Of a DNA stretch of 60,551 bases, positions 9,099-38,429 are shown one piece after another. Position numbers and translations under genes: made by a program. The stretch comes from Pirellulales bacterium. Lineage in GTDB: Bacteria; Planctomycetota; Planctomycetia; Pirellulales; UBA7805. The notes beneath the pieces were generated by a model that worked only from the letters and a program-made list of their open reading frames with translations, made no database searches and was not told the origin of the DNA. How positions within the stretch are numbered: the first letter of the stretch is position 1; every line of letters starts with the position of its first letter. The DNA is taken from the NCBI GenBank assembly GCA_030751095.1, contig JASMGX010000001.1:1-60551 (forward strand), written 5' to 3'.

Positions 9099-9104
9099 TG
9101 TTTG

Positions 9105-10643: not shown

Positions 10644-10658
10644 TACCACTGCTCCATT

Positions 10659-11363: not shown

Positions 11364-11364
11364 C

Positions 11365-13619: not shown

Positions 13620-13723
13620 TGTTTATCTCCGTAGCAGAGGACCGGGAATCTTTTACACTCTGCACCGCTGCGAATCACAACCATGCCTCGTGGCGAACAA
13701 TGTTCCCGACACCTTTCCTTTCG

Positions 13724-18240: not shown

Positions 18241-18371
18241 TCCGAGGCTTGTTGCTTTGGTCTCTAGAAAATCTAACCAAGATGGACGAAATGACAACCT
18301 AGCACTCCCAAAAATGGGCAACAAGATCATTAAGTCCAATTTCATCAAATTTTCCCTGGACGGTTCCTTCG

Positions 18372-19369: not shown

Positions 19370-22329
19370 GATCGCGGCTCCTTCACCTGCGTAGTGAGTG
19401 GTTGCTGTGTATAGAGCGTGAGGCCCGCCAGGCTGCGGCGACTCGTAGGAAGGACAAGGCTGACGACGTACCCTATGACAAAACAGGTGGCAACACCAGT
19501 CGCGCCGTACGCCCACGGGTGCAGCGGGAAGTATTGCTTGATCAAGTACTGGAGGATACCGGAGGCGATAATGCCGACGAGCGCCCCTGCGCCGCTGGCG
19601 CGTCGCGTGGCGATGCCGAGCAAAAACACCCCGCCGAGCCCGCCGCCGAACAGGCCGATGTACTTGCTGAACTCATCCCAGAGCGACTTGATATCGGGTT
19701 GCGAGGCCATCCAGAGCGCAAAGGCCATACTCAGTACGCCGATCACCACCGTAACGACCCGTGCGGTCGCGAGCGCTTTGGCCTGCGAGATGTCCTTGCC
19801 GAACCGCTGGTAAAAATCGGTGGTGAACGCGGCGGAAACGGAGTTCATCGACGAGTCGAGCGAACTCATCGCCGCGGCAAAGATCGCGGCAACGAGGAGC
19901 CCCGCGACCCCGAGGGGCATCTGCGTAACGATAAAGAGCGGGAAGATCGCACTTTCGTTCGCGAGCGTCGGGTCCATCGCGTGCGGATGCGAGCGATAAA
20001 ACGCAAAGAGCATCGAGCCGAGGCTGAAGAACAGCAGCGTCGCGGGGATGGTCAGGGCGGCGTTGGTCCAGATCGCCCGCCGGGCCCCCCGTTCGTCTTT
20101 GGTCGTAAGATACCGCTGGATCACCGTCTGATCGGTGCCATAGCTGATCAGTTGCAACCCGAAACCGCTGATGACGATGGTGAAGAATGTTGCATCTTTC
20201 CAGTCCCAGCGGAAGTCGAGCATCCGAAATTTGTCGCCCGCCTCGGCCAGCGCAAGCGTGCCGCTCCACCCCCCCTCGATCTGCATGGGGATCAGGATCA
20301 GGCACAAGAGCGCACCGCCCATCAGCACGAGTACCTGCAGCACGTCGGTCCAGATGACCGCCTCCATACCGCCCATGACGGTGTAGAGGATGCAGAGCAG
20401 GCCCATGATGGTGATGCACAGATTGATGTCGATCCCGGTGACCACACTCAAGGCGATCGACGGCAGAAACAGCACGATCCCGATCCGCCCGAACTGGAAC
20501 AGCATGAACATCGCGCTGCCGATCAAGCGGACCGGCAGGTTGAAACGCAACTCGAGGTACTCATACGCGGTAGTCACATCGAGCCGTCGGTAAAAGGGGA
20601 GGAACAGAAAGATGATCAACGGAGCGATGGCGACGATCGTCATGTTGGCCCAAAAGTAACGCCAGTCGGTCGCGAAGGTTTTGGCGGGGATCGCCATAAA
20701 CGTGAGCGCCGAGAGTTGGGTCCCAAAAATACTCACACCTGCAGCCCACCACGGAATGCGTTTGCCAGCCTTGAAAAAATCTTCCGTCGAATGCATCCGC
20801 CGCGAGAAGTAAAGTCCCATGAGGACCAGGACCAGCAGGTAGAGCCCCAGCACCGTGTAGTTCACCCGATCGAACGTGCTGCGCGAGATCGGCCTGGCCA
20901 GCAGCATCTGTCCGCTACGGACGCCGGGACGGATTTCGCCGGATGCCAGGACGATATCCTCGCCCCACCGCACCGCAGCGGTAGTGACAGGCCCCCCTTT
21001 CGCATGATGTTGCCCATCGACCGGTTCGGTGGCGGCGGGAATGGGATTTTTTAGTTTGCTCCACGTGTCGGTCACGGTGTGATACGCCAGCACATCGCGC
21101 GAAAACCCCGGGTGCTCGCTACCGCGGAGACGATTGAGTTCTTCGAGCGTGCTCGCCGCCGCCTGCTGGTTGCCTGCCGCCCGGCAGGTGTTGAGGTCCG
21201 CTTCGAGCCGAAGAATTTTTGAAAACACATCTCCGCGATCGCCACCGAACACGAGAATGTTGTATTTCCCCGATGCGAGGCCGCTACCGGCCATCACCGA
21301 ACGGGGCGCATCGCCACCAACATCGCGGAGCCTCTTCCAGCTTTTCTGTTCGGGGTCCAATGCGTAGGCGTCGGTCAGGATCACCGACTCTTCGGCGTTG
21401 CCCGGGGTGCGTCCGGAAAAGAGGTAGACGTTGTTGCGGGTGCCGTCGTTTTGGGCGGCGACGACCGGCAGGATGCGTGCCGGGCCGGGGATCGGCGGCC
21501 CGGCCTGCCACCTCCAGGGGAGGACGTTGCCCGCAGCATCTTTGGTGACGCGTGCGCGGTCCAGGTCGAGCATCCAGACCTTGTCGGTCGCGCCTGTTTG
21601 CGTGGCGCCACCGAGAACGTAGATTTTGTTGCCTACGATCGTGCCGCCGAGCATTGTGGTCGCCTGCGGGAGCGGTGGGAAGGGATGAAAATCCTCCGCA
21701 GGCTCCGGCGCCTCGGCATACCGGTTTTTGAGTCTGACCGATTCGCTCTGCGGGTCCCAGGCGAGCAGAAAAATTTGGTCCGAGGGGTGTGTGGTGCTCG
21801 TCGCCTTACCCCCGGCATCTTCGGCATAGGTTTTCCATTCACCTCCGATACAGAGCACACCTTTGGGTGTCGGGATCGACGTGCCGTAGGCGAGCGGCTG
21901 CGGCAGGTGCGTCTTGGCGACGGACCATTCGGGCGACGCACCATTTTGTTTACTCAGCACAAACACGGTGTCGTAGTAGATTTTTTGTGGCAGCTTGCCA
22001 GTCGCATCGATCGGGATCCAGGGCAGGCCATCGGGAAAATTGGCGCCGCCGGCGACGATGAGCCGGTCGTGGTGGACCCCGGCGAACGGGCCGGCCACAC
22101 CGAGTGCGGTCGACTGCTGCCCGCTGCCGTCGGGCAGTGGTGGGAGTTGGCCTTCTGCCTGCGCGTCTACCCAGTTGAGGTAGGCCGCGCCGGTTACCTT
22201 TGGCCCGGCTTCCTTTGGCCCGTTTTTCTGCGGCCTATCCTTTGGCCCGTCGGCCCAGGCAGAGACGCTCGCGAGCCACATTCCCGCTGCGAGAAAGAGG
22301 ATCGGCTTCACGATACACCTTTTACACAC
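19366..22329 (-). CDS. Fusion protein: N-terminal secreted Kelch-like / cyclically permuted mutarotase (NanM-like) domain plus C-terminal sodium:solute symporter (SSS family)
   Basis: Signal peptide (KPILFLAAGMWLASVSAWADG; alternative GTG start at 22311). The propeller region has GGANFPDGLPW and repeated G-G strand motifs (nt ~20845-22329). A ~13-TM SSS domain follows (nt 19366-~20844; FFKAGKRIPWWAAGVSIFGTQLSALTFMAIPAKTF). Confidence 0.8.
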   Translation of the reverse strand: MCKRCIVKPILFLAAGMWLASVSAWADGPKDRPQKNGPKEAGPKVTGAAYLNWVDAQAEGQLPPLPDGSGQQSTALGVAGPFAGVHHDRLIVAGGANFPDGLPWIPIDATGKLPQKIYYDTVFVLSKQNGASPEWSVAKTHLPQPLAYGTSIPTPKGVLCIGGEWKTYAEDAGGKATSTTHPSDQIFLLAWDPQSESVRLKNRYAEAPEPAEDFHPFPPLPQATTMLGGTIVGNKIYVLGGATQTGATDKVWMLDLDRARVTKDAAGNVLPWRWQAGPPIPGPARILPVVAAQNDGTRNNVYLFSGRTPGNAEESVILTDAYALDPEQKSWKRLRDVGGDAPRSVMAGSGLASGKYNILVFGGDRGDVFSKILRLEADLNTCRAAGNQQAAASTLEELNRLRGSEHPGFSRDVLAYHTVTDTWSKLKNPIPAATEPVDGQHHAKGGPVTTAAVRWGEDIVLASGEIRPGVRSGQMLLARPISRSTFDRVNYTVLGLYLLVLVLMGLYFSRRMHSTEDFFKAGKRIPWWAAGVSIFGTQLSALTFMAIPAKTFATDWRYFWANMTIVAIAPLIIFLFLPFYRRLDVTTAYEYLELRFNLPVRLIGSAMFMLFQFGRIGIVLFLPSIALSVVTGIDINLCITIMGLLCILYTVMGGMEAVIWTDVLQVLVLMGGALLCLILIPMQIEGGWSGTLALAEAGDKFRMLDFRWDWKDATFFTIVISGFGLQLISYGTDQTVIQRYLTTKDERGARRAIWTNAALTIPATLLFFSLGSMLFAFYRSHPHAMDPTLANESAIFPLFIVTQMPLGVAGLLVAAIFAAAMSSLDSSMNSVSAAFTTDFYQRFGKDISQAKALATARVVTVVIGVLSMAFALWMASQPDIKSLWDEFSKYIGLFGGGLGGVFLLGIATRRASGAGALVGIIASGILQYLIKQYFPLHPWAYGATGVATCFVIGYVVSLVLPTSRRSLAGLTLYTQQPLTTQVKEPRS

Positions 22330-22704: not shown

Positions 22705-22777
22705 GGGGCGGTAGCTCAGTTGGGAGAGCGCTGCGTTCGCAATGCAGAGGTCGAGGGTTCAACTCCCTTCCGCTCCA
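22705..22777 (+). tRNA. tRNA-Ala (anticodon CGC)
   Basis: 73-nt cloverleaf folded by hand: acceptor GGGGCGG/CCGCTCC with the G3:U70 alanine identity pair, D stem GCTC/GAGC, anticodon stem CTGCG/TGCAG with loop TTCGCAA, 5-nt variable loop, T arm GAGGG-TTCAACT-CCCTT, discriminator A. No encoded CCA. Confidence 0.9.
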
Positions 22778-22945
22778 CTTGATGTCAAAGTCATGCCTCG
22801 AACAATTTAACCTGCACACCCCGGCTCAGGTCGCACGCAAGGCCGGCACAATCTCCGCGCGGGCCGCAACAATCGCCGGCGCAATGCCGGCAAGCAGACC
22901 GATATTCGCCGCGATCAGCAGACCCCAAAGCACCACACGCAGCGA
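22728..22945 (+). repeat. Left copy of the ~218-bp imperfect direct repeat (tRNA-Ala 3' two-thirds + spacer + ABC permease 3' end)
   Basis: Gap-free hand alignment with 34817-35034 at a constant offset of 12089. I counted about 25 mismatches in 218 positions: 4/50 in the tRNA part, 10/48 in the spacer, 11/120 in the permease part. The first ~76 nt of the permease part have only 2 mismatches. Confidence 0.85.
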
Positions 22946-22960
22946 GCCAAACCGATAAGC
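22826..22960 (-). pseudogene. Truncated 3' fragment of an FtsX-type ABC permease gene (last ~44 codons only)
   Basis: The minus-strand translation AYRFGSLRVVLWGLLIAANIGLLAGIAPAIVAARAEIVPALRAT* matches the C-terminus of the intact permease at 34915-36057 (AFTPSLRLALWGLLIAAISGLLAGIAPAIVAARAEIVTALRAT*). There is no start codon and no upstream permease sequence. The giant gene stop lies 26 nt upstream, in another frame. Confidence 0.7.
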
Positions 22961-22985
22961 AAAATGCGGTGTCTCAAAACGCAAG

Positions 22986-25900
22986 TCAGACAGCAGCGGC
23001 TCGGCGAGAAAAGAAAAAGATCACCAGTCCGGCGATGATCATGAGGAGACCTGCAAAAGGGAAGATGCAGGTCAACAGGCTGGCGAGTCCCAGCACAATC
23101 AATATCAGTGAGCCTCGGCGGTCGCCGAGCGCAGAGAGGACGCCGCGGCGGATCCAGCGGATCAAAATCAGGGCCAGGACCACGACACCGACAACCCACC
23201 CGAGCGCTATCAGACGGTCGAGCAGCGGCGTGGAGATGGTCCGCGCGCTAATTTGGGCGTTGCCGCGAGGGGTTGTGAACAGGTAGAGGTCGCCCCGCGC
23301 AGGGATCGTAACCTCAAGACTCGCCATCCCGCCAATCGAAGGTCCACCGGTCGTCGGCAAAGCTGCGTCCTGCGGACTTTCTTCCAGGTCCGCTCTAGCG
23401 ATCTCGGCGGGTTCAGGGATCTTCCCCTCCTTGCGTGCTCTTTTCTTTTTGGCCTTGCCCTTCCGACCGCCAGCCTTGCCGCCGGGTTTGTCCTGATTGG
23501 ATTGTTGTGCTTCGAGTTTTTCCTGGTAGCGGCGGGCGTTGTTCTTGGTGCTTTCGATGTCCGACTCGGGGCGATAGAGGAAACCAGAATCTCCGCCATC
23601 ACCGCCGATAACGCCACCGCCGATGCCGCCCTGCCCGCCTATCTCACTTTTTTGGATTTGGCCTTTTTGGATCGAGTCTGCAAAAAGATCTGCTTTTCCG
23701 CCGACCTTGTTGGAGGTTTTATCGGGGTCTTGCGCAACCTGATAGCGACCGGCCTGTTGGGCGGGGGCGGGGGCAGCCAGTTCGCTTTGGCTCTCTTGGC
23801 CGCCCTCTGCCGAGAGGAAACCATCACGATCCAACTCGTTTCCCACCAACCACTTTTCGTTGAATCCCCGGTCGACTGGACGCTCGGCATCATTGATTCT
23901 GCCACCGATCCTCCAACCATTTTCCAACTGTTTCAGCTCGCCATCAGCGTTCCAGTTACGGCCCGTGTCCTGCACGACATTCGAAGCCCGGTCGTTGCGT
24001 TGGGCTCGCCACGCCTCGTCCAAGCGACTGCGGTTGTCAACCGTGTCGATTGTCGCGTCCACGACGTCCGCCTTTTCCAACTTGTCCCCAACAAGGTCCC
24101 GCCAAGTGGCGTTCAGATCGACATTTTCGCTGAGTTCCTGATTTAAATGCCTTTCTTCCTGCTGGTTGATCAATTTATTGTTTTCTGCCATCAGTCCACT
24201 CGAATTCGCGATCGCCCTGGCCCTGGCGTAATCGTCATCGCCACTGAGGACCTCGGCGAGTTTTTGTAGTTGTCTTGTGTTGTAAGCTACCTGGCCCGCT
24301 GCATGGTCTGCTTCGGTCACCAGTTTCATGTCGCCACCAAAGTCGAACCAAGAATGGTTTTTCGGCAAGTAGAGCCGCACCTGGCTCGTCTCGACGTTGA
24401 TATTGACAGTATGAATCAGCGGAAAACCGACCGTGCCCAGGTTGCCAAGCGACCCGAGTGTACCCCCATATTTGAGAATTACGGCGTAGTCCTGGTCCCC
24501 CTTGGCAGTTTTGATGAGCGGGATCTGCAGCTTGGCCGCGCCGCCGGTTGCAGGCTCTTCGATAGGTTTAACGGGCTCACCCGCCACCGTGGCGGACCAG
24601 AGGTGGGCTCCGGTGGGCAGGGCGATTTCTAAAAACTGCTCGGTTTCGTTATCGAGACGATATTCCTGAACGCCACGAAAGGCACCGCTGCCATCGACAA
24701 CGAGCTGGGTCCGCGCGAGGCCAATCGAAGCGCGGGCTGTTTCGACCGCTTTGCGCTCGCGCGTCTTGAAGGTCAATTCAGCGGTGTCGGAACCTTTGCG
24801 GACGACATAGGCCAGGGTAAGCCCCTCGCCGAGCAACGCGGCAAGCTCTCGCCATTGCTGCTGCTGTCGATTGAGCACCTCCAGGCCACTGTGCTGCTCA
24901 ACCACCAGTTCGTCTCGACCTGCATTTTCGAGGACCACGAATCGACGCCTGGTCTGCCCTGTCTGAACCACAGGGATCGGCGCCGTATGGAGGCCTTCGG
25001 TCAACAGATGGTCGTGAACGATCTTGACGTCGAACTGCCCCTTGAGATCGTCTTGCAGGTCGAGCTGCACGCGGACGAGTGGCTTGCCAGCGACGGGCGT
25101 GACCGTCGTTTGCCTGAGTTGCGGGGCACTGATCCGAGCCTGCTGCATCGATTCAGGCAATAGAAAAACAACCTGGCGAATCCCGGCATCGCTGATACTG
25201 AAATCGAGCAGGATGGTTTCTTCAATGGTATTTTCAGTGATTTTCGTGTTCGTAATGGTGCGGCAGGTCACTTTGGGCTGGCGACGGGTGAAGGCAAGTG
25301 ACCCGGCATAGTCGGCATTGCGGGCACGAAGAACCAGCCTTGCCAACTCGCGTTGCTGCCGCTGGATTAGCCAACTGTAAACACTCTGCGGCAATACATT
25401 TTGGCAATTTTGTAGATTTGCTGCGCGGACTTCGTAGGCCGGATCGACCTGAAGGACAATATCGCTTTCCTGATGGTCAACGCCCAAGATCGATAATTGT
25501 GGCAGCTCAAAAGTTTTTTTGTCGGTACCACCCTGAATCGTACCGCCGATGAAGACAGGAAAATCGCCCCTCCGACCCTCGCCCAACTGGATACTCAATA
25601 CGCGTTTGCCCTCTTCCTCAGCCACCGACCACTGAAACGGCTCCGGCGCGCGGACACGGTTATTCAGCTCCAGGCCCTCCGGAAGCACGATCTTCAAGCG
25701 AAAGATTTTTCGACGTTTCACCCGATATTGGATCCGGCTCTCAAGCGTCGTTTCTCTTTGGGCGACGCCGAGGATCGATTGCACGGTGGCCGATGTCTCC
25801 GCAGTGATTTGTGCGTCCGAGAGTCCAATTTGAAACGGCGTCGAAACAAACCGATACGTCTGGTAGGGCTGGATGCCGAGCGGACTCTCTTCAGCTCCGA

Positions 25901-28900
25901 TCACCGCGGCCAGGCGGGTCGCGGCTTGATCCGAAGCATCGGTTCGTGTCGCGCCCGCGAGCTGGGTCGTCTGCAATTGCAGGATCGGGCTACGGCGAAC
26001 GGTCAGCTTGCCCCGGTGCAGTGCAGCTCCGGTGACCATGACGTTGGGAACATCAAACGGGGATACCTGCTGTTGGCCCACGGCCCGATGCTGTGAAAGT
26101 TGGATCGTAACGCTCTGCTGGCCTTGAGACGCTTTCAACAGCGTGATCTCCACCTGCTGGGTATCGCCCACTGTTTTGGCTTGCCAATTACGAACATTGT
26201 CACCCACAATTCGTTCGAGCAGATACTCTTTTGGAACGGCGATCGTGAACGAATCGCGTAAGGTCCGGCCAAAGTCGACCTGGAGGCGCCACATCAGGAA
26301 AAGACCATCTTCGCGGACATCAAATACGGCTTGGGAGTTGGCAGTCAGGGTGCGGTCGATCGCTCCCTCGGCCACCGTCGGTCGCCATTCGATCTGCAAC
26401 AACCCATCTGCGGCGAGGACTGTTTCGATCGTTTCGTTGTTTTTGGTGGTCTCGTAAGTCTTGCGGTCGGCGGCGGCCGGCATGCGGATTTCGGTCTTGG
26501 CCAGCGGAACTTCGAGCGTCAGCGCCGTCGCCGGGGAAAATGGAATGTTGCCCGAGAGCAATCGCCATCCGCCACGACGCTCCAAGGGCAAACGAACCGC
26601 CACGTCGAGCCGATGCCGCCCTTTTCCGGACGCCAAGAGTACGACCAGCGGCCGTTGTGGCCGTTGGGAGACCGCCGGGCCGGCCCGCTGCGCTTTTTTC
26701 GTCTTTTGAACATTCGCGTGGCGAAGCTGTGGGACTTGGGCAGGAGCATTCGTCGCGGCCGGGTCGGCTGCTGAGATGAATCTCAGCCGGGCCGGCTGTC
26801 CGTCAAGCTCCGCTTCGGTCAACACACCCCCAGCCAGTGCCAGCGGCACGGAGACGACGTCATCGTCGGTGAACAGATCGACATCCACCGAGCCACGGAC
26901 GAGGAGAAATGTATCTCCTTCCAATCGAGCGGAGAATGCTCCACCCGAGAGGGCGAATTTGGCCGTCTGCTCCGCGACCTCGATTTTTTTGTCCGGGTGC
27001 GCCTGGTTCCAAAGTTTCACATACTGGTCGTAAGGGACCAAAACCTTTTCCGCTTGCTCAGCCCGGGAATCGATCCCGACCCCATCGCCAACATTGTAGG
27101 GGATGATGATTGCGTCGCGCGGTATCTTGACCGGCTCCGGAGGTGGCGCGATCTGGACGATCACCGGCGGCGCGGCCTCGGAAATTGCCGAAATCGTAAT
27201 GAACAACAACAGGATCGTCGCCGTGACCGAACGGGTACCTCGCGTTGGCCGACGGCCGCAGCATTGATGAGCAAACCAGCGGAGGATTCCGACAAACAAG
27301 TAGTAGGGAATCAACAGACAGGCGGTGAAAAAGGCAACGTCAAACGAGTCGCCAAGCTGGTTGGTCCAACCCGTTATGAGCGGCACCAGGCTACTGATCA
27401 GGATGACAGCAACGAGGTAACGCGTTTTGGTCCCCACCGGTCGCCGGGTCAGGAGAAGGCCGACCAGCAGGATCGCCAGCCCGATGGCGGCAGCAAAAGA
27501 CTGAACGCGATTTTTCTCGATGAGTTTTACTCGCAGGAGCGGGTCGACACCGAGGCTCTGGAATGAAATGTCTTTAGCCGATTTTTCGGGTAGATCGATT
27601 TGCAGACTGCTGAGACCTTCCAGGGCCCAGCTGCCTGTTGTTTTTGACTTGAAATATTTCCCGGACCTGGGCGGTACGCTCCGTGTGCTGGCCCTTCCTC
27701 CGTAGGCACGAGAGCCGAAGGCAGAGGCAGAGCTCGGTTCTGCTTCTTCTAATAGATCCATTTCTTCTGTTGTTACTTCCATTTCTTCTATTTCATCTAT
27801 TTCGTCCAATGCAAATGCATCGACGTCGGAATCCTCCGCTATTTCGATCGTCAACTCTCCCCTACCCGAGCTCAAACGCTCTCTTTCTGCAAAATCCTCG
27901 GCTGCCCTGCGACTTGATTCCCTCACACTCTGTATGCTCGAGAGCATAACGAATGGCTGAAACCCTCCGGCCAGGTAATACAGGGTCCGGACGACGGCCG
28001 CTAATGGTGAGGGTCTTTGTTGAGCCTGACTGAGAAACACCGTCCCTGCCGAACTGGCAACACGGTAACCGGCAGGTAGTTGCAAGCTCCACTGGACGTC
28101 GGCGACCGGGACTTCCGCCCGCTGCCGGTCGGGAGCAGACCACAAGTAAAGTTTTGGAGCAGCCAGTTCGACCGTCCCCATCAGGCCCAACACATCCGAC
28201 GGTGTCTCGAAGACAACCTGTAGTTTCCGCACCCCAGCGGTCGTTTTTGCAGGGAGGCTCAACAGCAACCGCCGCGATTCCCGTTGCGGCTTGATCGGTT
28301 CCCCGTCCAGAAACGCAGACCAGAGGCTCGACCCGGGCGGAAGTTCAATTTCCAGGTAGGAAGCCTTGGTCCTCAACTGATAGCGAGCGACCGTCTGGCT
28401 GATGCCATCGGCACCGATCGCGGTCACCAACTCAGCACGCTCGATGATCGCGCCGGGCAAACCGTATCCCGGATGGCGAAAGACGTTGATCTTGATATCG
28501 GCCTTTCCCCCACCGTAGGCGTAGGCACCGAGCAGCCGGGGACCGGGCAGGTACTCGGCGGCGGAGAGTTCTCCCACGTCAACCTCTCTGGCGGTCGTCA
28601 CCACCTGCACATCGAGTTCCGGGCTCCCCTCCACGGCAACGTGGCCCGATTGGAATGCCACGTCAACGGCTGCAATCAGCGGCAACGGCAGATTTTTCGG
28701 TTCTTCCGACTCAAGCCGCTGCAAAAAATCGACGGCCAGGCGAATGTGGCCACGGCGGCGCTGGGCCAACAAAACCGTCCAGCGTCGCACGCCGCCGGTA
28801 AGCTGGCTGCTGAATTCCTTCAACGCAGCACCGTCCATCCCCTGGATCGAGATGGAGTCGGGCGTGTCGGCGGGCAACTCGACGATGAGCTTGCGAACGC

Positions 28901-30863
28901 CAGCCTGCTGGACCAGGAAATCGACCTCGTAGTGCGCTTTGAGACTGTCGGGCAACACGGTTAAAAATGAATACGTGCGGGCAGTGATCCAGGGATCACG
29001 CCGCTCGACGGTTAAACTGGCTCGATAGGGCTGGCGGTCGTAGAAATAGGCGAGCGCTGTGGGAACGTCTGCCAGGCCATACCTGGCCCGGTCTTGTTGA
29101 TTCAAGGGAATCAATCCTTCGATCCGGTCCGCGCGCACGATCAGATCATCCTGGGCGACGACCGCCAGGGCACCGATGTCCTGAACGGCGTTGCGGACAA
29201 CAAAGGCTGGAAAAGTCAGCTTGTTCTGCTTCCAGTCGTTGAGCCAATTTTCTGGTACCGAGACCGCGGCGATTTGAAAAACAGTCGGCACCCGGACCGG
29301 AGCCCCCTTGGGGACGCGGATGCGGAGCAGCGAGGCGGTATCCCCCTCTTCTTGTTCGTGTAGCACCACCTGCCCATCGGCACCGCGAACGCTCGTCACG
29401 TGCCAACCTTTCGGCATCTCGATTTCCAGTTCAAAAAGTCGCTCGGCGGTCGGAACGACGGTAAAACTGGCGCGCAACGCCAACTCGCTTTCCGAAACCG
29501 TCAGCATCAGGTTCGAGACAACCTCGTGTTGCGCGGGCGGTTGGACGAAGCGGGCAGTCAGTCCGTAGTCCGCTTGGGGTGCGAAGTAGGTGACAATCGA
29601 GCGAATCGCAGGAGCCCCCGGTTCGGTCTGCAGGACGCTTTTTGGAATACTCCACATGAGCACCTGATTTTCGATCGTAATCAACCCGCTGGCGGTGATT
29701 TGTTCGGCATCGAGCCGCTCTTCCGCCACGAGCCCGACGACCGCGACCTGGCCGGCGACATCGAGCGGAGTCAAACGCGGCAATTGCCAATCATCCAGCG
29801 CCACTGCCGTTTTGATCAGCACAATATTCATGGAAACGGTACCCGCTGCCGGCTCGCGGAGTTTGACCGTCAGCACCCTTTGAGCATCTTTCCCCTCTAC
29901 CGCCCATTGGGCCAATAGTGGCGACTCGACCTGGCTGACCTCAAACCCGTCTGGCAGCGCAAATCGAAATTGTGCCGCTTCGCCGTAGAGCACGCTCATC
30001 GAGACCTGGGCGTGCAGGCGTTCGTAGGCCTTGGTGACTTCGTCCACAAGGACGCTGCGTGCCACGACAACCTGCCGCGTCTGGGCCGCTCGGTTATTGA
30101 GCGACATGACCACCGATAGCGGGCCACCTGGCGGGAGCAGCTCAAGTTCTGTGGTGTCGGCGGTCAGCTTGCGGCTCACCACCGCCGCGCCGCTTTTTAC
30201 TTCCACGTTTCCCGGCACGACGAGTTGCAATTTCGTGCTCGGTGGCGTCGGGACCTGGATGTTCAACGCCTGTTCGGCAGCAGAGGCCTGCAGCGGCGCA
30301 AGCAGATCGAGCACTAACGTGTGCTGGCCACGTCCTTCGACAAACAATACGATCCGGCCGTCCGGTCCCCTGGCCAACGGTGCCGGTGTCTTGTCGAGCG
30401 TCGCGGCGCGGATACCGACGCCGCTGAAACGTAACGGCAACTGTTGCAGTCCATCTTCCAGCACATCGACCTGCAACGTGCCGGTGATTCTCGCTCTGTC
30501 CTGTTTCAAGCTCCCCTTGTAGAGGGCCGACAAGACAAGCGCCTTGACAGGCGGCGGTTCGCCGGGCGAAGTGCGGACGCGGGCCAGCATCTCTTCGTAT
30601 TGCTGGCGTTTCATGAAAACCCGCCGCACGCCGCTCTTTAGAATGACGTTCAAGTCTTCGAACGGGACGAAGATTTCACGCACGACTTCGGGTTGTTTGG
30701 TCGGTGGTGGTGCGGCCGGGGCAGGCGCGATGTTGGCGAGCAGCACGAGGAGAAAAAGCAACCGCTTGTGACTACCGCAGCGTGCCGGAGTGAACGTTTC
30801 TCTGCGACTGGAGGTCACAGCCACCATTCTGCAACCGCAAACCGAGGAAAAAAACCTAGCCAT
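22986..30863 (-). CDS. Giant (~2625 aa) envelope protein made of two tandem paralogous modules with TM clusters; function unknown
   Basis: Uninterrupted 8-kb ORF. The preferred ATG at 30863 (MARFFSS...HKRLLFLLVLLANIAPAPAAPPP) overlaps the upstream gene stop by 8 nt; the track start at 31031 is TTG. Module A is nt ~27200-30863 and module B is nt 22986-~27190. A central TM cluster lies at ~27190-27510 and there are three C-terminal TM helices. Each module is alignable by eye to the 1195-aa neighbour. Confidence 0.75.
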   Translation of the reverse strand: MARFFSSVCGCRMVAVTSSRRETFTPARCGSHKRLLFLLVLLANIAPAPAAPPPTKQPEVVREIFVPFEDLNVILKSGVRRVFMKRQQYEEMLARVRTSPGEPPPVKALVLSALYKGSLKQDRARITGTLQVDVLEDGLQQLPLRFSGVGIRAATLDKTPAPLARGPDGRIVLFVEGRGQHTLVLDLLAPLQASAAEQALNIQVPTPPSTKLQLVVPGNVEVKSGAAVVSRKLTADTTELELLPPGGPLSVVMSLNNRAAQTRQVVVARSVLVDEVTKAYERLHAQVSMSVLYGEAAQFRFALPDGFEVSQVESPLLAQWAVEGKDAQRVLTVKLREPAAGTVSMNIVLIKTAVALDDWQLPRLTPLDVAGQVAVVGLVAEERLDAEQITASGLITIENQVLMWSIPKSVLQTEPGAPAIRSIVTYFAPQADYGLTARFVQPPAQHEVVSNLMLTVSESELALRASFTVVPTAERLFELEIEMPKGWHVTSVRGADGQVVLHEQEEGDTASLLRIRVPKGAPVRVPTVFQIAAVSVPENWLNDWKQNKLTFPAFVVRNAVQDIGALAVVAQDDLIVRADRIEGLIPLNQQDRARYGLADVPTALAYFYDRQPYRASLTVERRDPWITARTYSFLTVLPDSLKAHYEVDFLVQQAGVRKLIVELPADTPDSISIQGMDGAALKEFSSQLTGGVRRWTVLLAQRRRGHIRLAVDFLQRLESEEPKNLPLPLIAAVDVAFQSGHVAVEGSPELDVQVVTTAREVDVGELSAAEYLPGPRLLGAYAYGGGKADIKINVFRHPGYGLPGAIIERAELVTAIGADGISQTVARYQLRTKASYLEIELPPGSSLWSAFLDGEPIKPQRESRRLLLSLPAKTTAGVRKLQVVFETPSDVLGLMGTVELAAPKLYLWSAPDRQRAEVPVADVQWSLQLPAGYRVASSAGTVFLSQAQQRPSPLAAVVRTLYYLAGGFQPFVMLSSIQSVRESSRRAAEDFAERERLSSGRGELTIEIAEDSDVDAFALDEIDEIEEMEVTTEEMDLLEEAEPSSASAFGSRAYGGRASTRSVPPRSGKYFKSKTTGSWALEGLSSLQIDLPEKSAKDISFQSLGVDPLLRVKLIEKNRVQSFAAAIGLAILLVGLLLTRRPVGTKTRYLVAVILISSLVPLITGWTNQLGDSFDVAFFTACLLIPYYLFVGILRWFAHQCCGRRPTRGTRSVTATILLLFITISAISEAAPPVIVQIAPPPEPVKIPRDAIIIPYNVGDGVGIDSRAEQAEKVLVPYDQYVKLWNQAHPDKKIEVAEQTAKFALSGGAFSARLEGDTFLLVRGSVDVDLFTDDDVVSVPLALAGGVLTEAELDGQPARLRFISAADPAATNAPAQVPQLRHANVQKTKKAQRAGPAVSQRPQRPLVVLLASGKGRHRLDVAVRLPLERRGGWRLLSGNIPFSPATALTLEVPLAKTEIRMPAAADRKTYETTKNNETIETVLAADGLLQIEWRPTVAEGAIDRTLTANSQAVFDVREDGLFLMWRLQVDFGRTLRDSFTIAVPKEYLLERIVGDNVRNWQAKTVGDTQQVEITLLKASQGQQSVTIQLSQHRAVGQQQVSPFDVPNVMVTGAALHRGKLTVRRSPILQLQTTQLAGATRTDASDQAATRLAAVIGAEESPLGIQPYQTYRFVSTPFQIGLSDAQITAETSATVQSILGVAQRETTLESRIQYRVKRRKIFRLKIVLPEGLELNNRVRAPEPFQWSVAEEEGKRVLSIQLGEGRRGDFPVFIGGTIQGGTDKKTFELPQLSILGVDHQESDIVLQVDPAYEVRAANLQNCQNVLPQSVYSWLIQRQQRELARLVLRARNADYAGSLAFTRRQPKVTCRTITNTKITENTIEETILLDFSISDAGIRQVVFLLPESMQQARISAPQLRQTTVTPVAGKPLVRVQLDLQDDLKGQFDVKIVHDHLLTEGLHTAPIPVVQTGQTRRRFVVLENAGRDELVVEQHSGLEVLNRQQQQWRELAALLGEGLTLAYVVRKGSDTAELTFKTRERKAVETARASIGLARTQLVVDGSGAFRGVQEYRLDNETEQFLEIALPTGAHLWSATVAGEPVKPIEEPATGGAAKLQIPLIKTAKGDQDYAVILKYGGTLGSLGNLGTVGFPLIHTVNINVETSQVRLYLPKNHSWFDFGGDMKLVTEADHAAGQVAYNTRQLQKLAEVLSGDDDYARARAIANSSGLMAENNKLINQQEERHLNQELSENVDLNATWRDLVGDKLEKADVVDATIDTVDNRSRLDEAWRAQRNDRASNVVQDTGRNWNADGELKQLENGWRIGGRINDAERPVDRGFNEKWLVGNELDRDGFLSAEGGQESQSELAAPAPAQQAGRYQVAQDPDKTSNKVGGKADLFADSIQKGQIQKSEIGGQGGIGGGVIGGDGGDSGFLYRPESDIESTKNNARRYQEKLEAQQSNQDKPGGKAGGRKGKAKKKRARKEGKIPEPAEIARADLEESPQDAALPTTGGPSIGGMASLEVTIPARGDLYLFTTPRGNAQISARTISTPLLDRLIALGWVVGVVVLALILIRWIRRGVLSALGDRRGSLILIVLGLASLLTCIFPFAGLLMIIAGLVIFFFSRRAAAV

Positions 30864-33800
30864 CGGCCCGGCCTCCTTCCGAAGAGCCGCCTGAGGGTTC
30901 GTCACCGTCGTCACCGTCAGACCCTTCTTCCGGTTCCAACTCGGGAGGAGATTCGCTACTTTTCCCCTCTCCCTGCTTCTCGGTCTCTCCCGGTATCTCC
31001 CCCTCTTCGTCTCCCGATGGTGCATCCGCAACGATGCCTGCCGTCACAACATCGCCTCGAGGTGGATTGCGCCTCGATGCGAGCCTCGGCAGGTCCCGGA
31101 TCACAAACCAGACACCCCAGAGGATGAGCACGATGGCGAGCGCCCAAAATAACACGCCCCGCAGCACCTCACCCGAGAGCGTTGGCAGGAAGACACCCAT
31201 CAGGATCAAGGCGATTACCAGAACGGCCAGCGCCGTGAACTTCTCCGAAACGCGCCGTCGAATCATCACCAACCCGATCGCCAGGACAGCGAAGAAGACA
31301 ATCGACTGAAACCAGTTTTCGTTCATGGTCACTAAACAAAGCGCGCCTTTTTTACCACCCGGTGGCTGAAGTGTTGAGAACAGATAGAGTTGACCGGCGA
31401 CAGAGAAGGTGTCCGTAATGTTGCCCTTCTGTTTTGTGCCCGTGGCGACTTCCTCGAGCAATTTCTTCACCCTCTTGCGGGAATTGGATAACGGGTGGAA
31501 GCGCCACCAGGGGGGCTGCTGGTTGGTCCACGGTCCGCTGACCCCCAACAAAACCTGCTCGTCCGGCACGTATGCGCACAAGTAGACATTTTGCACCGCG
31601 GGTTCGTCCGGAAAAGAGGGTACCTGCAGGTCTCGGGCCGAACCTGTTTGCGTATAATTCAGTTCCAACAGGAAGGTGTCTTTTGCGTCGAGACCTACCA
31701 GCGGTATGTAGTAGTTGTCTTTGCCACCACTTTCCAGTGGCACGGACTGGCCGTTGATTCTTACCGGCTGTGCATCAAATTCCGGCTTGTTCTCGTTGTT
31801 CGTGGGGAGCACCAATTTGATGCGTTGCCGCGCGCTTCGCATCCGGTAACGGGCTTGCACGGCAACCTGGCCGGAGCGGGTGATGACCTGGCGGACGACC
31901 CCCATTTCGATGCTCGTCCGTTTCACTGCTTCCAGTTTGTACCGCGTGGCTTCCAGGATGAGCTTCCAATCGTCATAAAATTCGAACGCCAGGGCGGCAC
32001 CTTCAAGACGGTCTTTTTGATCAATGTCATGCTGCGGGTCGACCGGACGCAAGCGGTCCACCTCGCTCGGTCGTACGTCGATCGTTTCGCTCTTGGCGAC
32101 CACGATCTGTCCCCAGGCCAGATCGACACCGGAGGGCTTCAGCGACGGCACGACGATCGACACCGGCTTGCCGACTTCCAGGTCGCTCATGTTCTGCTCC
32201 CACTCGAAACCGACGACCACCTCGCCAAGCAGTTCGGTCTCGCCTGCCAGCTCCATGGCGACATAGCCTTCGCCGACATCCTTCGGCTGTGTCTGCATCC
32301 GCACCTGGCGAATGGCCGGCGTGGTGTTGTTCATTTTTTCGATCAGGTCCGCCGGCACGTCGATCCTCAACGACTCGACGCCGCTGTAGCGAATCAAATA
32401 GTAGAAGCGGGAAACATATTTGACTTGGCCCGACTTGATTTCCACAGTCAGTAGCTGGCGGACGGTGATGTGTGGCTTTCGCCTTTCCGCTTGGACAACG
32501 AGCGAGACCGCTTGGTCGGTGAACGCAAAGGCCAGGGAAGGTTTGGCTTTGGGAAACCGTGTGTCGCGGCAGGTGGGGATCTTCTGATAAGCTGCAGCGA
32601 TGGAGACACTGCGAAGCCCTTCCTGCTTCAATGGATTGACTTTCAGGCTCTCCGGTTTGCAGATCACCAGCCTGCCGGTCGACCGTTCCACACTCGCAGG
32701 TGCAACGCGCGGGATGGACAACTTCATTTCCGAAGCCTTGCCCGTAGGGCTCAGCAGATTCGGGTCCTTGAGCCGCTTTTCAAGCTCGAGGAAGAGACCG
32801 ACTTTGCCAATCGCCTTGCGAGCCAGATTGACGATCAGTTTCGTTTTATCATCCTCGTCGATATCGTAGTTATCGACATGGACGGGCGTTGCGCCGGGTG
32901 CTGCCCGTCCGCTCACCCGCCGGACCTGATAACCTGCCGGGATATCGATGTCGAACTGAAAGAGACCTGCCTTTTTGATGTTGTACAACACCAGTAAATC
33001 GAGCGTTAGTTTGTCCGGCTCCAGATACACTTCGACAAGCTGGTCCGCAACCACTCTCGGCTGAATCTTCTCAACGTCCATTTTTAGATCGAAGGGCAGA
33101 GCGGCGTAACGGTAGGCGAAGTTCCACCGGTCAGGTCCGATCCTGCGAGGCAGTTCGGAGGCGTCGAGTTGCAACAATCCACTGCGACTGATCCCTTCGG
33201 CGCGAAGACCTGCGCCCAAGCGGACAACTACGATCCCTTGTTGCCGGCCAACATCGAGCGCTTGTACCACCGGGACGACAAACTGTTTCTTCTCAAACTC
33301 GCCGACAAATTTTTCGAGTTCCACGGTCAGATTTTGTTTTCCCCGAGTCGGCTGAAAAAGCTGGATTGTGATCTGTTGGGTTTCCCCTTCGGTTTTGACA
33401 TCCCACTGGCGGACATTTGCGTCAAAGACTCCGGCCACTTTTTGGTCCGCGGGCACTTCGATGCGGAGTTGAGACAAATCGGCCCGGGTGATCTCATATC
33501 GCAATTGAGATCGGGTCCGGACAACACCCTGGTCCAGAGTCACCTGCTGTTCCGCCTGCACCGTGGCCAGAGCGGCCAGGCCGAGCGCACCTTCGGCCTT
33601 GGGCGTCCAATCAATCCGAACCATAGGCGCCGCGCCGAGAAAGGCCATCACCACCGTCTCTTTCGCATCGCTCTCGTCCTTGTTTGGGACCTCGGCGGCT
33701 GCAATCATCGGCTTGACGTTGACCTTCACGCCCGCTTCCGGGATCCGGATCTGCCAGCGGTTCACCGCCGCCTGGGGAGCCTGGATCGCCACACTGTTCT

Positions 33801-34383
33801 GACCCGGAGCCTTGGTGTAGGTCTTGGAGTACTGTAACGAAAGCTCAATTTTTTGCGGGTCGTTCTTTTCCTTCTTGACGAGCAACTTGTATCCGTTCTT
33901 GCCGATCAGCCGAGCGGGCTGGCCATTGAGTTGTGCCTCCGCGATCGCCGCGTTGTTGAGCCTCAAGGGAATCTCGTGCCAGCCGTCGGTCAACAATTCA
34001 ATTTTGAGACTGGCGTCGACCGAGATCACGTCCTCATCAATCGTTGCTTTACTTTCAATTTCGGTAATCACCGCTCGGACCGGCGGTCCCTCGTCCGGCA
34101 CCCGCCTCTCGGCCGCCCGAGCAGCTTTCCACAACGCCTGGAACTGGTCGTACGGCAGAAACACTCCGCGTCCATTCTTCTCGAACGAGTCGCGCAGTTT
34201 GGAATACGGTACGTAGATCGTCTGTTCGCGGAGTACGGAATCTTTCTTGTCGTCTTTAGCCGATTCTTCCGACGCCGGTTGCGCCAGGGCGATGGAACTG
34301 AGAAAAACCGACAAGACCACCGACAAGACCAGCGCCACACCAGCAGCGCAATAGAGGGAACGCGTAGCGGGGGTTGAGATCAT
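30856..34383 (-). CDS. Giant (~1175 aa) envelope protein, single module paralogous to the two modules of the downstream gene; function unknown
   Basis: The ATG at 34383 (MISTPATRSLYCAAGVALVLSVVLSVFLSSIALAQPA) is preferred over the TTG at 34443. A long beta-rich region is followed by three C-terminal TM helices (IVFFAVLAIGLVMI, ALAVLVIALILMGVFLPTL, VLFWALAIVLILWGVWFVI) and an acidic Gly/Glu/Asp tail. Confidence 0.75.
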   Translation of the reverse strand: MISTPATRSLYCAAGVALVLSVVLSVFLSSIALAQPASEESAKDDKKDSVLREQTIYVPYSKLRDSFEKNGRGVFLPYDQFQALWKAARAAERRVPDEGPPVRAVITEIESKATIDEDVISVDASLKIELLTDGWHEIPLRLNNAAIAEAQLNGQPARLIGKNGYKLLVKKEKNDPQKIELSLQYSKTYTKAPGQNSVAIQAPQAAVNRWQIRIPEAGVKVNVKPMIAAAEVPNKDESDAKETVVMAFLGAAPMVRIDWTPKAEGALGLAALATVQAEQQVTLDQGVVRTRSQLRYEITRADLSQLRIEVPADQKVAGVFDANVRQWDVKTEGETQQITIQLFQPTRGKQNLTVELEKFVGEFEKKQFVVPVVQALDVGRQQGIVVVRLGAGLRAEGISRSGLLQLDASELPRRIGPDRWNFAYRYAALPFDLKMDVEKIQPRVVADQLVEVYLEPDKLTLDLLVLYNIKKAGLFQFDIDIPAGYQVRRVSGRAAPGATPVHVDNYDIDEDDKTKLIVNLARKAIGKVGLFLELEKRLKDPNLLSPTGKASEMKLSIPRVAPASVERSTGRLVICKPESLKVNPLKQEGLRSVSIAAAYQKIPTCRDTRFPKAKPSLAFAFTDQAVSLVVQAERRKPHITVRQLLTVEIKSGQVKYVSRFYYLIRYSGVESLRIDVPADLIEKMNNTTPAIRQVRMQTQPKDVGEGYVAMELAGETELLGEVVVGFEWEQNMSDLEVGKPVSIVVPSLKPSGVDLAWGQIVVAKSETIDVRPSEVDRLRPVDPQHDIDQKDRLEGAALAFEFYDDWKLILEATRYKLEAVKRTSIEMGVVRQVITRSGQVAVQARYRMRSARQRIKLVLPTNNENKPEFDAQPVRINGQSVPLESGGKDNYYIPLVGLDAKDTFLLELNYTQTGSARDLQVPSFPDEPAVQNVYLCAYVPDEQVLLGVSGPWTNQQPPWWRFHPLSNSRKRVKKLLEEVATGTKQKGNITDTFSVAGQLYLFSTLQPPGGKKGALCLVTMNENWFQSIVFFAVLAIGLVMIRRRVSEKFTALAVLVIALILMGVFLPTLSGEVLRGVLFWALAIVLILWGVWFVIRDLPRLASRRNPPRGDVVTAGIVADAPSGDEEGEIPGETEKQGEGKSSESPPELEPEEGSDGDDGDEPSGGSSEGGRADG

Positions 34384-34582
34384 GGAATGATCTTTCCTTT
34401 TCAAAGATGGTAACCCGGTAAAGAAGGTAGTTACCAAAGCCAATTCTCCATTCTAGTTGCACGAAAAACAGATGTTGCCTGCCAGAACTTTTTCGCACAA
34501 ATAGATAGACACCGTTTACGGCCTGTTCGTTTCCCTAAATGTACCAAATTCGTAAAATTCCTGCCGGCCAACCGGCGAGTTG

Positions 34583-34597
34583 CTTCCGCTCCACTTG
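34583..34597 (+). repeat. Isolated 15-nt exact copy of the tRNA-Ala 3' end plus trailer (CTTCCGCTCCACTTG), a possible att-core relic
   Basis: Identical to 22766-22780 and carries the C variant found in the intact tRNA, not the T variant of the 34817-34866 relic. It lies in the 370-bp non-coding stretch between the giant operon start and the tRNA relic. Confidence 0.45.
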
Positions 34598-34816
34598 TTG
34601 TAAGTTTTTTGCTGAATCCGAGTTAGGGATACCTGCCGGGTCTGCGGCACCAAAGTTCAAAACGGCACGCGTGGACCATTTTTATGAAATCGGTACCGCG
34701 AACATGCGCGCATCGATGGTCTATTTTCTGCGTCGCGGCGAACGCTTGAGAAAATAGTTTCCGGGCGATAAACCGCAGCTGCCCTTGGACTTTGTTGCTT
34801 ATCCGCAAGCTGTTTT

Positions 34817-34866
34817 GCGCTGCGTTCGCAATGCAGAGGTCGGGAGTTCGACTCCCTTTCGCTCCA
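34817..34866 (+). pseudogene. Relic of tRNA-Ala (3' 50 nt only: anticodon arm to acceptor 3' strand)
   Basis: Aligns with tRNA positions 24-73 at 22728-22777 with 4 mismatches, two of which break T-stem pairing. No 5' half is present upstream. Confidence 0.75.
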
Positions 34867-35034
34867 CTTGATGGCAAAGTCATACCTCTAACCGCCTAGC
34901 CTGCAGACTCCGGCTCAGGTCGCACGCAAGGCCGTGACAATCTCCGCGCGGGCCGCAACAATCGCCGGCGCAATGCCGGCAAGCAGACCGGAAATCGCCG
35001 CAATCAACAGGCCCCAGAGCGCCAGACGCAGCGA
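34817..35034 (+). repeat. Right copy of the ~218-bp imperfect direct repeat (tRNA relic + spacer + 3' end of the intact permease gene)
   Basis: See the left copy at 22728-22945: same order, same orientation, no gaps. Confidence 0.85.
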
Positions 35035-36057
35035 CGGCGTGAAGGCGATCGTGACCGCCTCGGCACCGACCGAGAGACTGCTTAACTGCAACATCCCCAT
35101 CGCAAGCCCCACGCCCAGTACCCCGCCCGCAACGCCCAACACGAGACTTTCGGTCACCACAAGCCAAAAAACCTTCGGCCCGGAAAAGCCGATCGTCTGC
35201 AATAAGGCATGCTCGCGAATCCGGTCCTGCACCGACATGATCGTGGTCGTGGCAACAAGTGCGAGCACCAGACCGACACAGGCGTAACCGAGGTAGTGGG
35301 CCATGCCAATCAATTCCGCCAGATCGCCGAGACTGCGGGCCTGAAATACCCCCTTGGGCCGCGTGTCGGTCTCGACAGGGCCACCCTGAAACAGCTCGTC
35401 GACCTCTTCGGATTTGGCGACCGGGTCGACCCCCTCGGCGAGCAGGGTTTCGAGCTGCGTTACCGTCCCGACAAGATTCTTGCCCTTGCTCCGCTGCAAA
35501 AATTCGAGATGCGAGTAGATGTAATTCTCCTCCGCCGGGTCGCTGCTCTCAAAAATGCCCGCCACGTTCACGCTCAAATCGCCAATCGAAAACTTGCTGC
35601 CGACATTGAGATCGCGCCGCGCCGCAACCGCCCGGCCGATCACCGCGGCATCCTGGTGCTTTTCAAACTCCTCCCAACTCCCGGCGCTGAGCGTAAAATC
35701 GCGCGCGGGGCGGAGTTTCTCCGGCGGCACGCCGTAAAACACGACCACATCGAGACTCGCCCGGCAGTTGTTCGTAAAAACCTGAATCGGCACCACCTGC
35801 CGCACGCCATCGAGCTTGGAAATCTGTTGTTCGTAATCCTGCGGCAGATTGCTCGTCGCCGGGCAGAACTTGTTGGCCTGGAAGGTGATGAGCGAACCTT
35901 TCGCCCCCTGCTGGCGATGGATGGCGTTCATCCCCTCCTGCACCGCGCCCACAAAGCAGAAGACAAACAGCGCAACGGCCGAACCGCTCACCGTGAGCAG
36001 CGTGCGAGAGCGATGCCGCCAGAGCGTCTTGCCAATGTAGGGAAAAAATTTGATCAT
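34915..36057 (-). CDS. ABC transporter permease, FtsX/MacB-type (4 TM plus periplasmic domain)
   Basis: 380 aa. N-terminal TM (RTLLTVSGSAVALFVFCFVGAV), a ~200-aa periplasmic domain and a C-terminal three-helix FtsX-like bundle. Last gene of the efflux operon. Confidence 0.85.
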   Translation of the reverse strand: MIKFFPYIGKTLWRHRSRTLLTVSGSAVALFVFCFVGAVQEGMNAIHRQQGAKGSLITFQANKFCPATSNLPQDYEQQISKLDGVRQVVPIQVFTNNCRASLDVVVFYGVPPEKLRPARDFTLSAGSWEEFEKHQDAAVIGRAVAARRDLNVGSKFSIGDLSVNVAGIFESSDPAEENYIYSHLEFLQRSKGKNLVGTVTQLETLLAEGVDPVAKSEEVDELFQGGPVETDTRPKGVFQARSLGDLAELIGMAHYLGYACVGLVLALVATTTIMSVQDRIREHALLQTIGFSGPKVFWLVVTESLVLGVAGGVLGVGLAMGMLQLSSLSVGAEAVTIAFTPSLRLALWGLLIAAISGLLAGIAPAIVAARAEIVTALRAT

Positions 36058-36072
36058 CGTTATTTCACTCCG

Positions 36073-38420: not shown

Positions 38421-38429
38421 GATGATCTA

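Follow-up and report, generated by a model that had tools for sequence, protein, structure and literature searches.

The locus described here lies in a 60.5-kb window (the whole stretch of DNA that was analysed) from an uncultured marine Pirellulales bacterium. The window contains a single tRNA gene, a tRNA-Ala(CGC) on the forward strand at 22705–22778 (ARAGORN; Rfam RF00005, 65.8 bits), which forms the attL-like end of a small tRNA-associated islet. The insert consists of two giant reverse-strand open reading frames (ORFs) that overlap by 8 nt, giant2 (22986–30863, 2625 aa) and giant1 (30856–34383, 1175 aa), together with approximately 640 nt of non-coding DNA. The islet is bounded by a direct repeat, the sole direct-repeat family of at least 30 nt in the window. 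Software alignment and an ungapped count match 22728–22945 to 34817–35034 without gaps, with 193 of 218 positions identical (88.5%) at an offset of 12,089 bp; the 25 mismatches are exactly the number that an earlier, sequence-only reading of this DNA had estimated for a gap-free repeat of about 218 bp. Each copy is made up of a tRNA 3′ part of 50 nt, a spacer of 48 nt (spacer B) and, from a permease gene read on the reverse strand, the terminal 40 codons with the stop. In the left copy (22728–22945) these parts occupy 22728–22777, 22778–22825 and 22826–22945, the last being a dead permease fragment on the reverse strand. The right copy (34817–35034) comprises the displaced tRNA relic (34817–34866), spacer B (34867–34914) and the live 3′ end of the permease gene (34915–35034). 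The earlier description of the right side as a 50-nt relic beside a complete permease gene (34915–36057) was borne out; the left permease fragment, which it had drawn to 22960, has to be shortened, as homology ends at 22945. The relic begins at tRNA position 24, is identical to the intact tRNA at 46 of its 50 positions, and retains the complete anticodon stem-loop.

Within these boundaries, the giant genes are preceded on the left by a 40-nt flank at the 3′ end of giant2, designated x (22946–22985, reverse strand), which is part of the cassette in all lineages. To the right of giant1 lies its upstream region U (34384–34580), 96% identical to that of a sister lineage. The three parts of the repeat had been recognised before our analysis; a third, shorter tRNA 3′ relic inside the insert had been missed. 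This mini-relic spans 34581–34600 on the forward strand, with 15 exact nucleotides at 34583–34597 (CTTCCGCTCCACTTG), and no match of its type was seen in 100 shuffles. The homology of the cassette on metagenome contig L028 stops at this point. The mini-relic marks a second, inner att-like boundary, and the structure is therefore nested. Between the two relics lies the 219-nt segment A (34598–34816), whose first ~100 nt have an 83% identical counterpart downstream of the intact tRNA in sister contig L027 (an A-like segment of ~109 nt, matched to window positions 34583–34682), suggesting that segment A is a remnant of an earlier insertion layer. On balance, we think it somewhat more probable than not that this tRNA-Ala(CGC) is an insertion hotspot occupied by a degenerate islet that lacks an integrase, the islet's bounding repeat having been secondarily extended.

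The history of the site was reconstructed from relatives. Used as queries, the permease and a left-flank protein matched dozens of metagenome contigs, the named members of which are ‘Pirellulales bacterium’ metagenome-assembled genomes and TARA sequences. The nearest GTDB representatives are Pirellulaceae with permease identities of no more than 74%; four GTDB species representatives were tried as outgroups (permease 59–74%) and set aside, the tRNA adjoining the permease in none of them. A pristine site is present in contig L032 (permease 93% identical), where the intact tRNA-Ala(CGC) is followed by 17 nt (CTTTTTTTCAGCCGTAA) and then by the permease stop codon. The native arrangement is a tRNA-Ala, a short T-rich spacer and the stop of a MacB-type permease gene. 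Contig L025 (permease 92%) carries the same giant cassette as the window, and a tRNA relic starting from the anticodon loop adjoins the permease, followed by a short T-rich spacer. In the distant relative L026 (permease 87%), the tRNA of which is 100% identical to that of the window, the relic is separated from the intact tRNA by a 2.5-kb insert with genes for a kinase-like protein and a methyltransferase. Permease-adjoining relics are also found in L033, L034, L044 and L053, where the cargo was not identified; the ORFs of L044 gave no Pfam hit. The relic starts at tRNA position 29–31 in L025, L026, L033, L034, L044, L053 and L060, and unrelated soil contigs also hold relics of this tRNA half with similar boundaries. 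Crossovers within tRNA genes (tDNAs) were reportedly sorted into sublocation classes by Williams in 2002.

Searches for a recombinase, integrase, excisionase or transposase in the insert, using Pfam on its ORFs and on six-frame translations of the ~640 nt outside them, were negative, in agreement with the earlier reading. No integrase or recombinase was found within 10 kb on either side of the locus, and no integrase in the 60-kb window; Rfam returned nothing from the insert besides the tRNA. A tyrosine integrase of 440 aa (PF00589, 3e-9) is encoded at the orthologous tRNA of contig L051 (L051:3060–4382, reverse strand; Ga0209986_10001466), 172 nt from the 5′ end of an intact tRNA that adjoins the permease. 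The surrounding DNA is low in GC and includes a gene for a winged-helix protein; the far end of the element falls beyond the locus. Contigs L051 and L053 represent the same lineage, the former with an intact tRNA at the permease and the latter with a relic. In the Islander collection, a 5′ tDNA fragment is displaced in 159 of 3919 islands (PMC4383910), and by analogy the L051 element might belong to this rarer class. Scans of IMG/VR yielded no match for the tRNA 3′ half (as attP) or for the L051 integrase. The relics and cargoes of these contigs point to the tRNA-Ala site being a recurrent integration hotspot, with the integrase absent from the insert of the window.

These observations also bear on the possibility that the cassette is a cis-mobilisable element, moved by site-specific recombination at the anticodon stem-loop and the relic under the action of an integrase encoded elsewhere, for example one like that of L051, with the repeat extension being incidental. 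Such an element would account for the complete anticodon stem-loop of the window's relic, for the clustering of relic boundaries at tRNA positions 24–31 in many lineages, for the integrase at the orthologous tRNA, for nested relics that resemble tandem accretion, and for the occurrence of empty and occupied states in two lineages (L051 versus L053, and L003 or L032 versus the window). However, with no integrase in the window and no IMG/VR match for either the tRNA 3′ half or the L051 enzyme, we regard this explanation as unlikely. Moreover, the mosaic conversion tracts described below point to general recombination, and the junction in the cassette-free contig L003 falls ~85–90 nt past the anticodon loop, where a site-specific crossover would not be placed.

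The cassette and its flanks have different histories. Between the window and L025, synonymous divergence (dS) is 0.43–0.57 in four flanking genes, 0.071 in giant1 and 0.10 in giant2, so that the cassette is 5–8 times less diverged than its surroundings, and the identity profile drops from 94–99% to 75–89% at ~34,500. A similar discordance was seen with Ga0315338, a relative at 95% average nucleotide identity (ANI), with a dS of 0.04–0.06 in the cassette versus 0.11–0.22 in the flanks (2–4 times lower). Stronger constraint cannot explain the low dS, because the ratio of non-synonymous to synonymous divergence (dN/dS) is higher in the cassette than in the flanks. On contigs L028 and L076, the cassette and its tRNA stand in other genomic contexts. 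As the dS of the cassette is far below that of its flanks and the cassette occurs in these other contexts, the comparisons indicate that related lineages exchanged it well after they had split. The outer edge of the laterally shared block can be placed only between ~34,500 and the relic at 34817–34866. Vertical inheritance, which we had first inferred from the presence of the same cassette at the same site in a sister species, was abandoned in view of the discontinuity in dS.

The cassette is an island by its discordant divergence, and not by its composition. The GC content at third codon positions (GC3) is 0.67–0.69 versus 0.60–0.80 in the flanks, relative synonymous codon usage correlates at 0.93–0.96 and tetranucleotide usage at 0.93, none of them atypical for the host. 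The compositional profile that the earlier reading had proposed as a mark of acquisition is thus host-like, and the two cargo genes form a pair that is conserved in Planctomycetota. These two properties, and the finding that sister lineage L025 and the 95%-ANI relative both have the cassette at this very site, would be expected if the cassette had always been at this site in the clade, and the repeat were an old segmental duplication that had never been mobile. We consider this ancient vertical arrangement highly improbable in view of the reduced dS and raised dN/dS of the cassette. Relatives that are closer by permease identity lack the cassette, L032 (93%) being empty and L026 (87%) having other cargo; the cassette and tRNA occupy other neighbourhoods in L028 and L076, and a distant homologue of the pair has no tRNA nearby.

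Contig L028 (ERZ1303167 c_000000055068) showed further peculiarities. Its tRNA has two stem mismatches, A6×C67 and C11×T24, and is possibly a decaying passenger copy, judging from these positions. The unit lies between the copies of an imperfect direct repeat, 75% identical over at least 92 nt and cut by the contig end, and has a small gene for a CxxC zinc ribbon as its right neighbour.

The left junction of the islet differs between lineages. In L027, L028 and L076 the tRNA is followed by the A-like segment, then by the junction ...CTCGTCAGG|GCAGCGAGCCAAACC... and then by giant2, with no permease fragment in between; the bases just before the junction in the sister-lineage contigs end ...CAGG|GCAGCGAGCCAAACC.... 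BLAST homology of these three contigs to the window begins exactly at 22939, with the 7-nt sequence GCAGCGA (22939–22945), the outermost bases of the left repeat copy. The permease genes of the window (right copy), L025, L026 and L032 contain the heptamer at the equivalent position, and in the sister-lineage contigs it opens the 3′ flank of giant2. The 170-nt extension of the repeat beyond the tRNA was found only in the species of the window and in the 95%-ANI relative Ga0315338. The repeat is consequently a composite of an old tRNA homology of ~50 nt and a lineage-specific extension of ~170 nt (spacer and permease end) that terminates at a 7-nt microhomology.

Homology-facilitated illegitimate recombination (HFIR) is characterized by one homologous anchor and a microhomology of 3–10 bp (de Vries & Wackernagel 2002; Prudhomme et al. 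2002; Meier & Wackernagel 2003; as summarised in PMC6382021). At the islet, the tRNA 3′ half would be the anchor, and GCAGCGA stands in both parental-type sequences. By analogy, a combination of one homologous and one microhomology joint would be the pattern of HFIR, template switching or templated break repair, and not that of an att site. We infer that the 170-nt extension is a secondary junction product, neither part of an att site nor a souvenir from a former host. The extension may have been formed with the arrival of the cassette or later, two timings that the junctions do not distinguish.

The earlier reading had instead entertained capture of the extension from a relative or former host. 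In its classical form, this explanation holds that attP carried the tRNA 3′ half, the spacer and the permease end as a result of imprecise excision from a host with the same synteny, so that the left copy would be foreign and the right copy native. Such an island would leave the arrangement seen here, with the tRNA intact at one end and a direct 3′ relic at the other. The left fragment retains an ancestral proline in EIVPALR where the resident gene has threonine, and the 5:5 ratio of synonymous to non-synonymous differences hints at some past purifying selection; gene conversion could have erased the signs of foreign origin. In other strains, the fragment carries a +1 frameshift. However, the fragment is missing from three sister-lineage contigs that have this cassette and tRNA, and it ends at a microhomology with pre-existing cassette sequence. 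Had an element-borne fragment been lost from the sister lineage, the 7 nt would have to be a chance leftover. No donor permease with the C-terminus of the left copy (…AANIGLLAG…EIVPALRAT) was found among the 120 closest homologues. Furthermore, the left and right copies both end in RAT* and have in common 16 derived states relative to L025 and L026, and the right copy, too, contains spacer B and not the native T-run spacer. Capture of the flank therefore seems to us quite unlikely, more so than mobilisation in trans.

The two copies of the repeat exchange sequence with one another. In strains with flanks >99% identical, the left and right copies are mosaic, and in Ga0315338 the two copies are 93.6% identical and have in common five lineage-specific states that differ from both copies of the window. 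This pattern indicates that the copies evolve in concert by gene conversion; therefore, the similarity of left and right copies can neither date the duplication nor identify its source.

Among 20 population loci, 19 carry the cassette or are compatible with its presence. The exception is L003, in which the permease is directly followed by the tRNA-Ala and the genes of the left flank, with no cassette. Its repeat switches from left-type to right-type within the spacer, at window positions 22811–22816. Both flanks of L003 are 99.82–99.91% identical to those of the occupied loci L005, L007, L011 and L013, which is closer than those loci are to the window. Because its flanks are nested among occupied strains in this way, L003 is probably a recent deletion of the cassette from an occupied genome and not an ancestral empty site. 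An ancestral empty site with a Campbell-type crossover in the spacer was rejected on the same nestedness test. The comparison with an empty site suggested in the earlier reading is accordingly answered by L032, which is uninterrupted, and not by L003. The sequence evidence indicates that the copies behave as ordinary recombining repeats, through which some cells of the natural population lose the entire 12-kb cassette. A reciprocal product, whether circle or tandem, would join the left part of the right copy to the right part of the left copy, for example as ...GTCATACCTCTAACCGCCTAGCCTGCA|CACCCCGGCTCAGGTCGCACGCAAGGCCGGCAC....

This behaviour led us to consider, as a possible but doubtful extension of these results, that the tRNA-Ala and its displaced copies serve as portable homology arms, allowing the cassette to be looped out as a circle by RecA-type recombination and reinserted into related genomes that have this tRNA, with no need for an integrase. 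If so, gene-specific sweeps could carry an envelope-protein module across species boundaries, and the growth of the repeat from ~50 to 218 nt in one species would make this homology-driven switching in and out more frequent, whether as an adaptation or as a ratchet.

Two parts of the repeat vary in ways of their own. Spacer B (22778–22825 and 34867–34914) is hypervariable among strains with flanks >99% identical, and its first ~13 nt (CTTGATGTCAAAG) are similar to the start of segment A (CTTGTTGTAAG). Most strains of the species have a relic (34817–34866; ~11190–11240 in L001–L010) whose T-arm reads GGGAG/CTCCT and not GAGGG/CCCTT, a set of five changes that includes two compensatory pair swaps. 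These changes are not present in the relics of the 95%-ANI relative, L025 or L026, and the relic of the window has the 5′-side changes only. They may reflect patch conversion from another tRNA-like att sequence.

A degenerate islet with a secondarily extended repeat could have arisen as follows. From the native site seen in L032, one or more elements with a tyrosine integrase would have integrated at the anticodon stem-loop, displacing a 45–50-nt 3′ fragment of the tRNA to the permease, and the second, shorter relic would mark a further layer of integration. Only the two giant genes now remain between the rebuilt tRNA and the relics, and this pair has been exchanged among lineages, presumably by homologous recombination, with the tRNA and relics acting as portable homology, or by an integrase in trans. 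In the species group of the window, the repeat then appears to have grown from ~50 to 218 nt, when the resident tRNA 3′ half, the spacer and the last 120 nt of the permease came to flank the cassette on both sides. The joints of this event, the tRNA homology and GCAGCGA, would fit HFIR, template switching or templated break repair.

Several points weigh against this reconstruction. The polarity of the left junction, from sister type to window type, rests on parsimony, and the reverse may have occurred: the permease fragment could possibly have come first and been replaced in the sister lineage, leaving 7 nt. Since gene conversion blurs the origin of the copies, the 16 derived states in common are no proof that the resident gene was the template of the left fragment, and we no longer rely on that argument, which concerted evolution weakens. 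Non-syntenic left flanks in the sister lineage prevented mapping of the left limit of the laterally shared block. Spacer B, at 48 nt, differs from the native spacer of L025 and L032, which has 16–17 T-rich nucleotides. The integrase of L051 lies on the 5′ side of the tRNA and in another lineage, and no integrase is tied to the cassette. Finally, L003 is a single metagenome contig, and two of its spacer states (G128 and T131) are unlike those of its nearest occupied relatives. A misassembly of L003 through a k-mer graph shortcut appears unlikely, because the switch interval has only 6–9 shared bases and the contig has states that are not found in its nearest relatives.

The islet resembles known classes of tDNA-associated DNA. 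The Islander database defines islands by a tDNA and its displaced fragment (Hudson, Lau & Williams 2015, PMC4383910). Like those islands, the locus has an intact, regenerated tRNA at one end, a cognate direct 3′ fragment at the other, and relatives with an uninterrupted target (L032, L003 being probably a secondary deletion). Its boundary falls at the anticodon stem-loop (position 24 in the window, 29–31 in relatives), in line with the anticodon-loop or T-loop boundaries of Islander, and its site is reused with different cargo and contains nested fragments, as in tandem arrays. Unlike Islander islands, the locus has no tyrosine integrase gene inside it, its composition is host-like, its cargo is a conserved two-gene module and not a set of accessory or phage genes, and its repeat extends 170 nt past the tRNA into the neighbouring gene and ends at a microhomology. 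The view of the locus as an integrated island thus holds for a tRNA-linked variable segment with lateral exchange and presence/absence variation, and fails for a simple structure and for the extension as part of the element that arrived.

Cis-mobilisable elements (CIMEs) are att-flanked remnants of integrative elements that lack a recombination module of their own, as known from the Streptococcus elements ICESt1 and ICESt3. The islet is likewise flanked by att-like sequences and devoid of genes for recombination, integration or transfer, shows signs of accretion, and has a related integrase-bearing element at the same target (L051). It differs from CIMEs in phylum and cargo, in a deletion junction outside the presumed core site, and in that mobilisation in trans is here only a candidate. 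The similarity to HFIR lies in one joint within a homologous anchor (the tRNA 3′ half) and another at a GC-rich 7-nt microhomology. In contrast to HFIR, the outcome is a 218-nt resident duplication flanking an insert and not an insertion-deletion, and the event is deduced from comparative anatomy only.

The locus is essentially ordinary but instructive, a CIME-like tDNA islet of a well-known kind. It suggests that a tRNA integration site can remain a hotspot of gene flow after its integrase has gone, in this case with a conserved, host-like pair of giant envelope genes exchanged between lineages with ~85% identical flanks, and present or absent within one natural population. The bounding repeat would record three processes, namely site-specific integration, a microhomology joint and gene conversion. 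For annotation, the case advises caution: an intact tRNA with a direct relic does not make the whole repeat an att site, nor the cargo foreign.

The giant proteins have no sequence match in Pfam, NCBIfam or the PDB. Giant1 is homologous to both halves of giant2 (22% identity, E = 2e-27). From hydropathy, giant1 is laid out as a signal peptide or transmembrane helix, ~1000 aa (of which beta-sandwich domains make up ~850 aa), three or four transmembrane helices and an acidic tail, and giant2 as two giant1-like modules, with a signal peptide, ~1070 aa, four transmembrane helices, ~1300 aa and two transmembrane helices. An AlphaFold2 model of giant1, built from a 60-sequence alignment and having a predicted local distance difference test (pLDDT) score of 82, showed a string of beta-sandwich domains at residues 104–950 followed by four helices. 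Foldseek matched this model to generic multi-beta-sandwich ectodomains only (integrin legs, oligosaccharyltransferase subunits; TM-score ≤0.17), and neither the sequence nor the structure searches pointed to a function. The pair is best described as predicted membrane-anchored envelope proteins. Homologous pairs with 40–65% identity and the same 8-nt overlap occur across Planctomycetota in other neighbourhoods without a tRNA, making this a family worth flagging: membrane-anchored beta-sandwich proteins of ~1,200 and ~2,600 aa, widespread in the phylum, for which Pfam and NCBIfam hold no model.

An acidic low-complexity stretch of giant2 (residues ~1000–1060, window ~27675–27864; …EIAEDSDVDAFALDEIDEIEEMEVTTEEMDLLEE…) is hypervariable. 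The inter-lineage alignments all break there; among strains, giant2 is between 2620 and 2630 aa long, and the stretch coincides with 100-N gaps in three scaffolds. Divergence differs across the stretch (91% versus 96%), which therefore suggests a recombination mosaic within giant2.

To the right of the islet, Pfam identifies, on the reverse strand, the MacB/FtsX permease (34915–36057; PF12704 and PF02687), an ABC ATPase (36073–36801) and an HlyD-like adaptor (36801–38420). These genes belong to a five-gene export operon on the reverse strand (34915–40177) composed of a MacB-like permease, a 173-aa ORF, the HlyD-like adaptor, the ABC ATPase and a second MacB-like permease. The synteny of the operon is kept in L021–L026, L033 and L051. 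The five-gene order was constant in all Pirellulales relatives examined, and in the distant ones examined it was unlinked to the giant pair.

To the left, the window encodes a respiratory nitrate reductase cluster (7479–18348), with a NarG-like protein (13724–17368), NarH (12126–13619), NarJ and NarI, a cytochrome c protein (17365–18348) and two NarK-like transporters of the major facilitator superfamily. Between this cluster and the tRNA, a reverse-strand gene (19366–22329) encodes a Kelch/NanM-type beta-propeller of the N-acetylneuraminate epimerase family fused to a sodium:solute symporter domain (977–987 aa), and is followed by a gene for an RraA-like aldolase. The predicted domains of the fusion protein and its aldolase neighbour suggest a sialic-acid-type uptake module.

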